The translations under genes were made by a program, and so were the position numbers. A DNA stretch of 64,000 nt from Octopus vulgaris (Eukaryota), in the NCBI GenBank assembly GCA_951406725.2, contig OX597835.1, positions 28,520,001 to 28,584,000 of the forward strand, written 5' to 3'. Numbering within the stretch: position 1 is the stretch's first letter; every line of letters begins with the position of its first letter. Below are positions 17,802 through 64,000 of this stretch, piece after piece. The notes below the pieces were generated by a model. It did no database searches. It was not told where the DNA came from and saw only the letters and a program-made list of their open reading frames with translations.

Positions 17802-17936
17802 GGTCCCGGGTTGAGTCGGGGTTAACCACAGTAAATAAGGTACTCAATACATAGCAGAGTAAATTAATTTATTATATAGAAGGAGCTTCTACAGGACTAG
17901 AACTGTTTCATTCAAAAGAAATCATCAGGAAGCTCA

Positions 17937-17989
17937 GAGCTTCCTGATGATTTCTTTTGAATGAAACAGTTCTAGTCCTGTAGAAGCTC
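17937..17989 (+). ncRNA. Type-I hammerhead ribozyme motif; mirror copy 17883-17935 (minus) in a perfect 133-nt palindrome (17870-18002)
   Basis: gagcttc-CTGATGA-tttcttttgaat-GAAAC-ag ttctagtc ct-GTA-gaagctc; 7-bp stem I, real stem III; the closing pair of stem II is a U-U mismatch. Confidence 0.75.
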
Positions 17990-17993
17990 CTTC

Positions 17994-18024
<31 letters not shown>

Positions 18025-18036
18025 CTGTATATATGC

Positions 18037-18077
18037 AGTCTGACGATGTCTTACTAGGCCGAAACTTCGATGTCACT
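18037..18077 (+). ncRNA. Minimal hammerhead ribozyme motif
   Basis: agt-CTGACGA-tgtcttactaggcc-GAAAC-ttcgat-GTC-act. Confidence 0.55.
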
Positions 18078-18199
18078 ATCAACAACATTTTTGTATAACA
18101 ATAATAAATTTGTGCTCTAGAGAAACATAGAGTTGCCCATGAGATTAATGTAAAACTGTTTCTATTATAACTGAACATCAGAAAAAAAATCATTAATAT

Positions 18200-59133: not shown

Positions 59134-59220
59134 TCTGTGTTCCTTTATAACGTCTGCCATCCAAATGTCCTTGGTTTCCAAGCTTTTTTTGAACCGGGTC
59201 CAACTGGGAATCGGGAATGC
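59134..59220 (-). CDS. Cytochrome P450 (clan 2, CYP17A1-like), internal exon (F-G/G-helix region), 87 nt
   Basis: ttttcag acceptor and gtaagt donor; phase 0/0; translates AFPIPSWTRFKKSLETKDIWMADVIKEHR and continues in frame into ETL.. of the next exon. Confidence 0.85.
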
Positions 59221-59337
59221 CTGAAAATAGGACAGAAAATACTTCAGAAAATCATATATATATATACCACTCGGCGCTTGTAAGTCTGTTTACAAAGTAT
59301 TATCACACACACACATATACGCATACATATACATATG

Positions 59338-59404
<67 letters not shown>

Positions 59405-60236
59405 AAACAATAATAATAAAGGGTAAAATTCATTAATCAATTAATAATTAATAATTCTACCAAGTAGTTCGGTATGTTAAAAGAACCTTTATACAAAAAT
59501 TCTATAATTATTAGCATAATTATAATTAGGGTTCAGCAAAAATTGCTTCACCGCATACAGAAATTTAGAAATAGCAGTTAACTACTATTCCACTACCATA
59601 AGATATCTCCCAGACAGTAACCCTAATTATAATTATGCTTATAATTATAGAATAAATATATATATATATATAAATGCGTGTCTTTGAATTGAAAACTGAG
59701 GGAAAAAGATGAAATATAAAGATAAATCAGCTGAATTTACTGGAAAAAAAAATACGTAGGTAAACAAAGATTTATTAGAAACATCAGAACACTTCCACCT
59801 TCGTGACAGCGGTTGCTTGCAATGCATTGGAATAGCACAATACAATAAATAAACTGTGGAAGTTGTAAAGATAATTTATGAACACCCTATATGTATGTGT
59901 GGAGGCACATGACCTAGTGGTTAGAACAGCGGACTCGCGTTCGAGGGATCGCGGGTTGGAATCTCAGACCGGGCGATGTGTGTTTTTATGAGCGAAACGC
60001 CTAAGCTCCATGCGGCTCCGGCAGAAGGTAATGGCGAAACTTCTGACTCTTTCGCCACAACTTTCTCTCACTCTTTCTTCCTGCATCTTGCAGCTCACCT
60101 GCGACGGAGCGGCAGGTGAGTTGCAAGATGCTCACCTGCGACGGGTCCGTCCAGGTGGGGAACTATACGCCAAGGAAACCGGGAAACCGGCCCTTATGAG
60201 CCAGGCGTGGCTCGAGAAGGGACAAACAAAACTGTA

Positions 60237-60294
<58 letters not shown>

Positions 60295-60411
60295 GAGAAT
60301 TCACAAAAAAAAGAACAAAAGACGGAGACAGGTCGTGTAGGCAACGAACAGATGTATTAGTGTATAACGCTGGGGAAGTGAAAAAGTCTTTAACGTTTCG
60401 AGCCTACGCTA

Positions 60412-60457
<46 letters not shown>

Positions 60458-61339
60458 CATTGCGAGTCCAATAACCTGGCGTAAAGCTCAATATGCGTAT
60501 GTTCCAGAATGAAGCGTTAGCCGAGTATGGAGCGGCAATAAGAAAGCGAGATGAGAAAGGAACAAATGATTATCTTATGAACTTCATTACCTTACACCTG
60601 TTTCTGATATGAGATGTAGTAGACTCATAGTTGAGTACCTGAATAACACCTTATAGCTTCACAGGGGCTTCGAATATTAAGTGCAATTTATCTGGGAAAA
60701 GAATTATGTTTGTGTCTAAATAGGGAAAAGCATGTTTGGCTTTTTTCAACGTTGTTCCGCAGTATTGTACAAACAACAACTGAAACACTTCTGCCGTTCC
60801 TGGGCTGATTCCACAACTCAAATTGTTTCCAGTATCCATGGCGTCGCAACGTATTGGTTAAGTTAAGTATAAGCTTACATATCTGCTTTAAGATCCACCA
60901 ATCCGGATTTTCTGTGAGGGGTTAACCTCCTTTACGTTTCCTGTTGTTTTTTTCTTTTCTTTTTTAATTTTTTAAATGCTGGATAAATTTACATCACATG
61001 TTTTAGCTCAATAAACATTTGCTTGCAATAACAAACACCACAATGTTACAATGTATTAACAACTGACCAGACAATCAACACGCAACACCCGTGAGTGTGA
61101 AACACAAATGTTTGGAAACCAATTCGTATTTCTTTTATTTGTAAATATTGTTCAGAATTTTGCATGCATGCATGTATGTATGTATGTATGTATGTATGTA
61201 TGTATGTATGTATGTATGTATGTATGTATGTATGTATGTATGTATGTATGTATGTATGTATGTATGTATGTATGTATGTATGTATGTATGTATGTATGTA
61301 TGTATGTACGTACATACGTATGTATGTATGTATGTATAT

Positions 61340-61825
61340 GTCAGGTCACTTTCCAGTGCTACTGGAAACATGTAACCCAGTACAACCTGTTGCATGGTCG
61401 GGTCGTCGGCGACTAAACCGGCAACCCCCACCAAGCTTGCTTGGTGAGGAGGGTGTTTATTGGACACCCTGCGGGATGAAAAACAAAACCCGTCAAAGGG
61501 CGAGGGAACTCTTGAGAGTCAACGGCCATCCAATAAATGTCTTAAGGCTGTATCATGCACGGGGACATAGAAATAATCGGACTGAATACCCGATCGTGCG
61601 GTTAAACCATTGGGAGTGAAGGACTCCTAGCCTTTGTTAGGGCATCCTTCTAGGAGAAAGTAACTCAGGTAACTGGGATAACTCCGACATAAAACCTGCG
61701 GCTCAGTGGTTACTGATGATGCTGACTTGTTCTTCTTTTCGGATTATGGCTGCTGTTGCTGAGTGAGTGGGATTGACTCAGTGCACAGCCTTTTCCTCAC
61801 TTTAAAAAAATCTCTCTTGCGCTCA
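61340..61825 (+). mobile_element. Probable LINE (RTE) 5' UTR fragment
   Basis: gggcatccttctaggagaaagtaactc motif, CpG-rich, no credible ORF. Confidence 0.4.
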
Positions 61826-62199
61826 GTTTCTTTCCGAGATCGATGTTTATAGCCAGGCCGTCAAAATTTTCATAATTTTTAGCTCACCGCTGAATGGCAA
61901 ATGAAAAAATCGTTAGATTCTTCAACACAAGACATTTTAGAGTGTCCAAGACGAACATAATTTGACACGTGTCAGTCATTGATTGGTTGCACGTTTCGAC
62001 TGGGTCAAACTCTACATTTCTTTTTACTTTTTAATTTCCACCTCTCTATTTAAGTGAATGGCAATATAACCAAAAAAAGGTGGGTGGAACCATAATTTTC
62101 GGTAGGAAAAAGTTACAGATAAAAACCTGTTACTTTTGATTAGAGCAGCACAATTAAATTGTGCTGCTTAAGTCAAATATGTTAGGTAAAATAATTAAC

Positions 62200-62415
62200 T
62201 TTTATTCTTTTATTCTTTTACTTGTTTCAGTCATTTGACGGTGGCCATGCTGGAGCACCGCCTTTTAGTCGAGCAAATTGATCCCAGGACTTATTCTTTA
62301 TAAGCATAGTACTTATTCTATCGGTCTGTTTTGCCGAATCGCTAAGTTACAGGGACGTAAACACACCAGCGTCGGTTGTCAAGCGATGTTTGGAGGGATA
62401 AACACAGACACACAA

Positions 62416-62466
<51 letters not shown>

Positions 62467-62620
62467 CGACGGGCTTCTTTCAGTTTCCATCAACCAAATT
62501 CAATCACAAGGATTTGGTCGGCCCGAGGCTATAGTAGAAGACACTTGCCCAAGGTGCCACGCAGTGGGACTAACCCCAGAACCATGTGGTTGGTAAGCAA
62601 GCTACTTACCACACAGCCAC
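62200..62620 (-). mobile_element. SINE A
   Basis: Consensus match. Confidence 0.88.
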
Positions 62621-62835
62621 ATAATATGTAATAGTTTAAGCCACTTAATAAACTGACAATTCCTGATATGTATACTCTATACAGCGACAACGCAATTTAT
62701 ACAAAGGCATAAAAAAATAAGCACACACACACACACATGATCTTCATTTGTAATGCACTTTGTATCCAGTCTGATGATCGCCAGCGTGAAATTCTAATAG
62801 CTACATGTGATGTGCCAGTTATAATGACTACGCGC

Positions 62836-62875
<40 letters not shown>

Positions 62876-62876
<1 letters not shown>

Positions 62877-63171
62877 CGAGACAAAACCACTATTTTGCAA
62901 AACAAATAAGGAAAGACTTAATCAATACATAAAAATTTTTAATATAAAGAAATAAACCGCCACTACAATCGTTTCATGTCTTCAATGACATTCGTCAGGT
63001 GGATTTTCGATTCATAAATTAAAACAGATTAGGAGATCGAAAATCCACCTGACGAATGTCATTGAAGACATGAAACGATTGTAGTGGCGGTTTATTTCTT
63101 TATATTAAAAATTTTTATGTATTGATTAAGTCTTTCCTTATTTGTTTTGCAAAATAGTGGTTTTGTCTCGA
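62876..63171. mobile_element. Perfect 136-bp inverted repeat (62876-63011 / 63036-63171), Penelope-like element between (TA)n tracts
   Basis: Arms are exact reverse complements by inspection; 24-nt spacer. Confidence 0.9.
63045..63087 (+). ncRNA. Type-I hammerhead ribozyme; identical mirror copy 62960-63002 (minus)
   Basis: ccac-CTGACGA-atgtc attgaa gacat-GAAAC-gatt-GTA-gtgg: stem I ccac/gtgg, stem II 5 bp, short stem III, GUA cleavage triplet. Confidence 0.85.
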
Positions 63172-63256
63172 ATTAATATTATATAATATTTTACTATAAA
63201 ATTGGATTTAATCCTAAATCTGATTTTTTCCCTGTAAATTTGGATTTATTCCCTAA

Positions 63257-63298
<42 letters not shown>

Positions 63299-63501
63299 TA
63301 ATGAGGGAGATAAATTTAATATTAATTTAATTAATATCAATTTAAAACCAGTAGCCTAGCATACAAAAATCTGAAAAATCAGAGAAAATTCTAATACAAT
63401 TGTATATTTAAAGGGCTAAAAAACTTTCTTTTTAGTTTGGTCGTAGGTCATCTACTTCTAGCATAGGGCTGTCCACATAGTGGTTTTTTAGCCCTTTAAA
63501 T

Positions 63502-63560
<59 letters not shown>

Positions 63561-63897
63561 AATGTTTCTATATGATATATACACACACACGCCCACATAT
63601 ATATTTAGGTATATATTTGTATGTATATAGATATTGTTATTCCTTTCAATTCTGGCAGAGAGAACCTTGGTATGAAACATGTAGACATCTAGAATGGCGG
63701 TTAAAGTGGGGTCTTGTATTTCGTTGTGCCTCGCCCAGAGAATGCCATAATTGTTAGTCTTACTTCTGAGGGTATATTAAAGCCGTGTAATACCTGTAAT
63801 GTTTTAATGCGCTTCGTGTACAGGAAGTAGTTCTCCCAGCGTGTATGTTGACTGCAAGTGTTTAATCAGAAATTATCTTTATATATTTTGCGAACAT

Positions 63898-64000
63898 AGG
63901 CGCAGGAGTGGCTGTGTGGTAAGTAGCTTGCTTACCAACCACATGGTTCCAGGTTCAGTCCCACTGCGTGGTATCTTGGGCAAGTGTCTTCTACTACAGC
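63898..64000 (+). mobile_element. SINE A 5' part, runs off the window
   Basis: ggcgcaggagtggctgtgtggtaagtagc head. Confidence 0.9.

Follow-up and report, generated by a model that had tools for sequence, protein, structure and literature searches.

The perfect palindrome near the right end of the analyzed DNA very probably consists of two copies, arranged head to head, of the first ~250 nt of the spliced RNA of a Hydra-clade Penelope-like element (PLE). The DNA, here called the window, is a 64,000-nt stretch of the Octopus vulgaris contig OX597835.1 (positions 28,520,001 to 28,584,000). Comparison of genomic copies suggests that the palindrome was made in one insertion event, in which both nicked target strands primed reverse transcription. 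It is likely to be one of many short, dead copies of the spliced PLE start that are joined in this manner. The kind of insertion is one already known, an inverted PLE repeat with a one-sided tail, and the window copy is most likely a passenger. The single locus is ordinary; the pattern across its family bears on the open question of how PLEs replicate.

The positions of the features are collected in Table 1. The two inverted arms are complementary at 136 of 136 nt, with 24 nt between them, and (TA)n tracts lie on either side of the element, both as reported in the preliminary description of this DNA. That description also considered the element young. This is borne out, since 49 of the 60 genome matches that were scored cover the full 136-nt arm at 97 to 100% identity; scoring took in 40 of 1120 candidates in a genome of 2.8 Gb and 227 contigs. 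Its view of a fold-back element is right for the perfect arms and wrong for the symmetry: the right arm continues to ~63263 through a ~90-nt tailed end that the left arm does not have. At 30 loci, the flanks revealed an asymmetric element that extends beyond the perfect arms. One of its arms stops ~14 nt past the palindrome (the short end, R177, in the numbering of a natural 249-nt reference cut from L014). The other runs through a ~75-nt tail (the long end, ~R249 to R255). In the window, 5 nt are deleted from the short end of the left arm relative to most copies, and the perfect arm therefore ends at 62876. The tail (63189 to 63257) consists of two ~38-nt tandem units (31 nt at 77%) and is about twice the usual 30- to 40-nt PLE tail; the two units could be two binding sites for a protein dimer. 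Target-site duplications are unreadable because the target is (TA)n.

Table 1. Features of the insertion and of its host gene (positions in the window unless a contig is named)
Feature	Position	Strand	Remark
Left (TA)n target tract	62841..62872	.	basis: sequence
Short end of left arm	62867..62875	-	upstream internal priming site R177
Left arm	62876..63011	-	exon 2 of PLE 5' UTR, R28-163
Minimal type-I hammerhead motif	62960..63002	-	predicted cut after 62964; sense in P450 pre-mRNA
Head-to-head junction	63011..63011	.	1-nt microhomology; window locus is L001
Exon 1 of PLE transcript	63011..63035	+	27-nt leader, here R3-27; previously called the spacer
Exact exon-exon junction	63035..63036	+	1.1-1.6-kb GT-AG intron here in intron-retaining copies
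Right arm	63036..63171	+	exon 2, R28-163
Minimal type-I hammerhead motif	63045..63087	+	predicted cut after 63083; stem III self-complementary (dimer type)
Long end	63172..63263	+	short-site sequence plus ~75-nt tail (two ~38-nt tandem units)
Right (TA)n target tract	63262..63296	.	basis: sequence
Coding exon 2, CYP17A1-like host gene	59134..59232	-	exon 59229-59134
Coding exon 1, CYP17A1-like gene	G000:C22:28665661-28666398	-	aa 2-248

The 24 nt between the arms are exon 1 of the element and not a mere spacer. Parent elements carry, in order, a leader exon, a GT-AG intron, an exon with the hammerhead, the tail, and an open reading frame (ORF) for a reverse transcriptase (RT) and a GIY-YIG endonuclease. 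In 12 of 12 leader matches of long loci, a GT donor comes after the 27-nt leader. The parent intron, measured in 10 copies, is ~1.1 to 1.6 kb long, and its AG stands directly before the arm. The former spacer plus the right arm of the window is the exact spliced junction. Exact counts in the genome gave 204 spliced junctions, 55 unspliced acceptors, and 11 unspliced donors, and control counts were 0; the junction patterns were of unequal length and miss diverged copies. The left arm of the window ends precisely where exon 1 meets exon 2, and the same holds for the partner arm at L085 (2 of 35 truncated partners).

The leader starts within an initiator-like TCACTT. Among the 43 spliced arms that reach the start A, the base at -1 is G in 21, C (the genomic base) in 9, A in 7, and T in 6, as counted with a pattern that excluded G at -2. 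The binomial p for G in 21 of 43 is 6e-8, and 7 of the 43 arms retain the genomic bases at -2 and -1. Copying of the cap yields an extra G in L1, and the extra G found here is what a copied cap would give. Many of the extra Gs fall in one recurrent junction (13 copies), where the partner arm could supply the G. At L029, L139, L228, and L243, the extra G adjoins the target without a partner arm. Copies that retain the intron donor extend 74 to 1488 nt upstream of the start in 11 of 11 cases, compared with 2 of 19 spliced arms (Fisher p 1.4e-6). Spliced arms that run upstream of the start do occur (L104, L225, L233, and probably L012). Because L104, L225, and L233 exist, the division between spliced and read-through RNA holds as a strong tendency with exceptions.

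Exact splicing, stops at the start site, and the extra G together indicate a sense, capped template. In the published reading of head-to-head PLE repeats with palindromic junctions and intron retention, such repeats are proposed to arise by self-priming on an antisense template (passages of PMC3846280). For the family studied here, this is very improbable. The sense-strand GT-AG intron is exactly removed in 204 junctions, copies stop at the initiator-like start, and the extra G is seen, all of which speaks for a processed RNA of sense polarity; an antisense template could only come from transcription of a stub that was spliced beforehand.

We identified the parent by walking upstream from long copies. 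In genomic copies, arm and tail lie directly upstream of the RT/GIY-YIG ORF, which confirms the previously suggested origin in a PLE terminal repeat. The parent tail continues for ~60 nt to the ATG of that ORF. L063 is a partial tandem of the form repeat-ORF-repeat, with the repeat (95%) both up- and downstream of the ORF. At L062, arm and tail precede a broken ORF at 98% identity, the closest ORF-linked copy, and they also precede long open frames in sister copies. A protein search of the genome revealed many parent copies, several with open frames of about 820 to 860 aa. The terminal repeats of the intact ORFs (~820 to 850 aa) that we examined are only ~90 to 93% identical to the window stub.

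The parent protein, read in P0001, P0002, and P0010, has DKT, KWK for RWK, and a CxCx5C linker, plus a GIY-YIG-like region at its C terminus with CxxC/CxH. Pfam and PDB sequence searches with the parent ORF gave no RT or GIY-YIG match, so the domain call rests on these motifs and on a by-eye match to a Hydra alignment. By the same motifs and alignment, the parent is classified as a Hydra-clade PLE. The marks of this clade are DKT, RWK, the CxCx5C linker, CxxC/CxH around the endonuclease (EN) end, and no CCHH (passages of PMC8557442). The parent shows all of these, with KWK in place of RWK, and has the preference of the clade for (TA)n insertion and its hammerhead as well. By eye, the protein aligns with Hydra-1_Obim. 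However, the parent represents a different family from Hydra-1_Obim as far as the latter is described in those passages: the hammerhead is another one, the protein is clearly diverged by eye, and the parent here has a long Asn-rich insert and a long terminal repeat with a kilobase intron. The arrangement is that of an EN+ PLE, with partial-tandem and inverted copies and a tail at one end. A spliceosomal intron in the 5' UTR is found in parents and long copies and has been precisely lost from the window stub and most short copies. In P0010 (L211:4042-6492, minus strand) and P0001, the long asparagine-rich segment lies between RT and endonuclease; a similar segment was reported in rotifer Penelope ORFs (passages of PMC3846280).

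We then compared the two ends of each insertion across the family. For the spliced set, we took the first 100 entries of the 204 spliced matches listed and added the window and L003. This gave 102 anchored arms in 82 insertions, among which one duplicated locus is counted twice and one locus has three pieces. An inverted partner was present in 67 of the 82. In 64 of these, a long end was combined with a short end; none had two long or two short ends, and 3 had an interrupted partner. The remaining 15 insertions had no visible partner arm. Intron-retaining loci with a close inverted partner in view were long plus short in 14 of 14 cases (two older 82% neighbors were left uncounted). A later set covered 20 of the 22 start-reaching places outside the earlier sets; its two-armed loci were also long plus short (14 of 14), and 6 loci were solo. 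Overall, all of the 92 two-armed insertions that could be classified combine a short end with a long, tailed one.

The two-armed spliced insertions, minus the duplicate and the three-piece locus, were tabulated. These 65 insertions contain 54 distinct junctions. This number and the asymmetric ends do not fit a foldback or MITE-type DNA element or a self-propagating palindrome. The recurrent junction is found on both alleles and in both polarities, which rules out a palindromic master element as its source. The 47 clean junctions among the 65 have a mean microhomology of 2.3 nt versus 0.95 nt simulated, a level reached in 0 of 5000 simulations. Foreign sequence of ~100 to 125 nt was captured between the arms at the junctions of L012 (rc, 1350-1475) and L013 (rc, 1380-1480), and the piece in L013 matches inverted nearby flank sequence.

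The extent of the arms bears on how the second arm was made. In 12 of 65 insertions, the 5' reach of the short arm exceeds that of the long arm by at least 10 nt, and the reverse is found in 24 of 65. In those 12, neither arm can be the DNA template of the other, because the long arm alone has the tail and the short arm alone has the extra 5' sequence. The arms of two insertions (L024 and L109) do not overlap at all. In 50 of the 51 pairs that were clearly typed, a common indel allele is shared by both arms (10 more pairs were untyped or had other variants), and discordant arms were seen at L003 (site 132) and L103. The sharing suggests one RNA or one source locus; later arm-to-arm conversion could do the same. 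A single target-primed cDNA that folds back and copies itself into a second arm would also explain the shared alleles, as well as the junction microhomology. Such copying fits the 53 of 65 insertions whose short arm is not clearly further 5' than the long arm, but the other 12 contradict it as the sole mechanism. It would further require a second mechanism for these 12 and for L024 and L109, and a separate reason for the fixed short end, and we consider it unlikely.

Perfect palindromes can be artefacts. Consistent with this, none of the listed short-read contigs from four sequencing runs spans the window junction. However, the outer ends of the arms differ, and the center is a biologically exact exon. 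The same end rule holds in 92 insertions, most of which have diverged arms (only 6 of 43 long pairs are perfect). In addition, the arm is present at full length in most of the scored genome matches, and contigs of other runs contain the spliced junction and other head-to-head joints. These results leave an assembly artefact, which the preliminary description had raised, or a long-read fold-back artefact with a negligible probability.

We consider the following model, insertion by twin priming, to be likely. The template would be a capped, promoter-initiated sense RNA, as indicated by copies that stop at the initiator-like start and often carry the extra G. The endonuclease would nick both (TA)n strands, and one 3' end would prime after the tail and the other before it. 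The two cDNAs would halt at variable points, anneal via 1- to 7-nt microhomology, and be filled in. The orientation fits such priming: from each flank inward, the arm is an antisense cDNA that starts at an AU-rich site resembling (TA)n. If both strands prime at two internal sites, each palindrome therefore arises anew at insertion. Promoter-initiated spliced RNA would give short stubs only, because the priming sites lie within the 5' UTR. Full-length copies would need read-through RNA that spans two terminal repeats and mostly keeps the intron.

We lean, by a small degree, toward a stronger form of this model, in which twin priming is obligatory. In this scenario, a protein dimer would hold one RNA, and each strand would prime at its own fixed site flanking the tail. 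Capped spliced mRNA initiated at the internal promoter would give stubs only, read-through RNA would give the full-length copies, and the folded hammerhead would act as an RT stop or cut point. Obligatory twin priming would account for the inverted repeats, for the one-sided tail, and for a puzzle of long standing, the retention of the intron, and no antisense template would be needed. Insertion as modeled here would also explain genomes strewn with long perfect hairpins that would feed dsRNA pathways. Twin priming is known from LINE-1, in which the second target strand primes internally on the RNA and the cDNAs join by microhomology, so that an inversion results. Twin priming occurs only now and then in L1, where the second site varies and the parts do not overlap, whereas here both sites are fixed and both cDNAs usually copy the same stretch, giving a palindrome.

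An in vitro system for an anole PLE, the Poseidon element PAc, offers a closer comparison (passages of PMC11167929). There, both target strands are cleaved and extended on an uncut RNA template, from two adjacent internal start sites that delimit the tail, and ribozyme cleavage is dispensable. PAc belongs to another clade, and its start sites lie in an AC-rich stem-loop in the ORF, whereas those inferred here lie in AU-rich 5' UTR. The strands in that system did not differ in their start sites, and no coupling of strand to site is reported in those passages. Therefore, the strict one-long-one-short rule is not explained by that work. The rule connects the pair of start sites used in vitro with the pair of target strands and yields direct predictions for the existing system. 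Internal priming in the 5' UTR, if correct, would also resolve the intron-retention puzzle of D. virilis, where transcripts are mostly spliced, yet most elements keep the intron (passages of PMC2377424).

The hammerhead core previously noted on each arm is present, with CUGACGA at 63049 (+) and 62998 (-), a 5-bp stem II, GAAAC, and GUA. A scan of the whole window for minimal type-I hammerheads with stem I of at least 4 bp gave exactly two matches, one per arm. An Rfam search of 60000 to 64000 found no hammerhead among 45 matches at E<=1. The motif has the type-I core (CUGANGA, GAAA, and NUH, with stems I to III); its stem I has 4 bp, its stem II is closed by A-U, and its stem III has 2 bp and a palindromic loop. 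Eight nucleotides of stem III are self-complementary (predicted duplex, -5.8 kcal/mol), the dimer-type layout described for PLE hammerheads (passages of PMC4209133). The same passages describe dual minimal hammerheads on opposite strands, 100 to 700 bp apart, which share with the window motif the minimal type-I form, the short stem I, the palindromic stem III, and the occurrence in truncated-PLE pairs. Those pairs have a conserved G-C at 10.1-11.1, whereas the motif here has A-U and no extra base before stem II. How such pairs originate is not worked out there.

The hammerhead fold appears to matter to the parent, because it is kept between subfamilies by a compensatory change. In the sister subfamily, A-U is replaced by U-A in stem II, and the other changes are found only at N7, in loop II, and in the stem III loop. 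Mutation counts in inserted copies (core, 18/1712; whole motif, 58/5258; rest of arm, 187/10837) gave no clear sign of selection on the core. Cleaved RNA was rejected as the usual template. A pattern for a break at the cut site followed by a non-T base had two matches, one of them a point mutation and the other real. One copy (L172) clearly ends at the cut site, versus at least 259 junction-bearing arms whose 5' part extends beyond it. L126 and L225 also fit a stop there, though they are invisible to that pattern. The ends of truncated partner arms cluster at R68-76, where 7 of the 33 ends within R20-165 fall (binomial p 0.003, for an interval picked after the data were seen). Further stops near the cut site were found at R70 and R72 (unspliced loci), R75 (L225), and R69-70 (contigs of other runs). 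Most of the clustered arms go a few bases past the cut site, and RT stalling in the folded core is therefore likelier than cleavage; a microhomology preference is an alternative explanation of the cluster.

Non-LTR retrozymes are also noncoding, PLE-derived sequences with a type-I hammerhead (passages of bioRxiv 10.64898/2026.07.22.740005). They form head-to-tail tandems and are thought to arise via circular RNA, whereas the stub here is head to head and copies read through the cut site. The head-to-head layout and the single unit per arm rule out a non-LTR retrozyme.

The suspected placement in a P450 intron was confirmed. Coding exon 1, absent from the first 30 kb beyond the window, was located ~82 kb past the window end; exon 2 is in the window, and GT donor and AG acceptor are in frame. 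The insertion lies in intron 1 (~86 kb), ~3.6 kb upstream of the exon 2 acceptor. A fragment of the P450 shares 93% identity with an Argonauta protein. The coding part of the CYP17A1-like gene opens with one large exon of ~250 codons, followed by the ~86-kb first intron (G000:C22:28579232-28665661).

On either strand, the antisense arm is transcribed first, and the sense ribozyme follows in the later arm, after its perfect complement. The predicted energy of the hairpin is -235 kcal/mol (z -35), versus about -8 kcal/mol for a ribozyme-sized piece. The latter value is no better than that of shuffled sequences, and the predicted minimum-energy fold of this piece is not the hammerhead. These predictions and the order of synthesis argue against the proposed competition between ribozyme folding and the dsRNA hairpin. 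Self-cleavage from either strand, also proposed, loses support: the ribozyme is predicted to be locked in the hairpin, and minimal PLE hammerheads are inactive as monomers in vitro (passages of PMC4209133). In the P450 pre-mRNA, the ribozyme would be buried in the 136-bp duplex and stay uncut, and the stub would be a passenger. Folding predictions thus make a ribozyme/ADAR switch in the host transcript unlikely. A role of the long dsRNA as an ADAR or Dicer substrate is plausible.

Taken together, the preliminary description amounts to a nonautonomous ribozyme element, palindromic in form, that would spread as one unit and, within the host pre-mRNA, switch between ribozyme and dsRNA. Of 119 arms, 109 indeed have an intact hammerhead core, 13 copies share one junction, a compensatory change keeps the fold between subfamilies, and the P450 intron location is real. 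But the many different junctions, with the recurrent one on both alleles and in both polarities, speak against an element that propagates itself. The inserted copies lack clear selection, the hairpin is predicted to be far more stable than the ribozyme, and conservation between subfamilies reflects the parent elements. We judge this reading to be quite improbable.

Inverted pLTR insertions of EN+ PLEs with a one-sided tail (passages of PMC8557442; Pen2a_Av in passages of PMC3846280) share with the window element the head-to-head repeats, the tail on a single side, the TCACT start, the 5' UTR intron, and an AT-rich target. They differ in that here both arms are spliced 5' UTR only, with no ORF and no intron, and the tail is ~75 nt rather than 30 to 40 nt. 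Those passages contain neither the one-long-one-short rule nor a spliced majority, and no extra G is mentioned in them. Whether head-to-head PLE repeats derive from antisense self-priming or from a sense template was left open by the authors of PMC3846280, and what intron retention signifies is called unknown in PMC8557442, in the passages concerned. The PLE family is young and numerous enough for the mechanism to be read from its copies. Our literature search found no description of twin priming in PLEs, of an extra G or cap, or of spliced or intronless PLE copies, and passages of PMC12910113 offered nothing of relevance; Arkhipova/Evgen'ev papers of 2003, 2005, and 2006 may discuss such copies. 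The spliced, start-anchored, strictly long-plus-short form, and what it may imply for PLE integration, were not found in print within a search that did not extend to older subscription papers.

Several other features of the window were observed. A second head-to-head palindrome (17860-18012, with a left extension to ~17795) has 76-nt arms at 95% identity and a 1-nt center and lies between (TA)n tracts. Both of its strands contain CUGAUGA...GAAA words, it is extended on a single side, and it looks like the same architecture from another PLE family. At 18030-18080 (+), a hammerhead-like core (CUGACGA...GAAAC) stands directly after a (TA)n tract. At 60290-60410, a stub of ~120 nt is flanked by (TA)n tracts on both sides; it resembles a common repeat in the flanks of L013 and L021 and is possibly another PLE end. 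The sequence adjoining the right side of the insertion (63296-63500) is of high copy number, with very high contig depth, and also lies between (TA)n tracts. Finally, inverted copies of a SINE-like repeat (62528-62620 and 63908-64000; 93 nt, 92%) bracket the insertion and, from their sequence, could form a second long duplex in the same intron.
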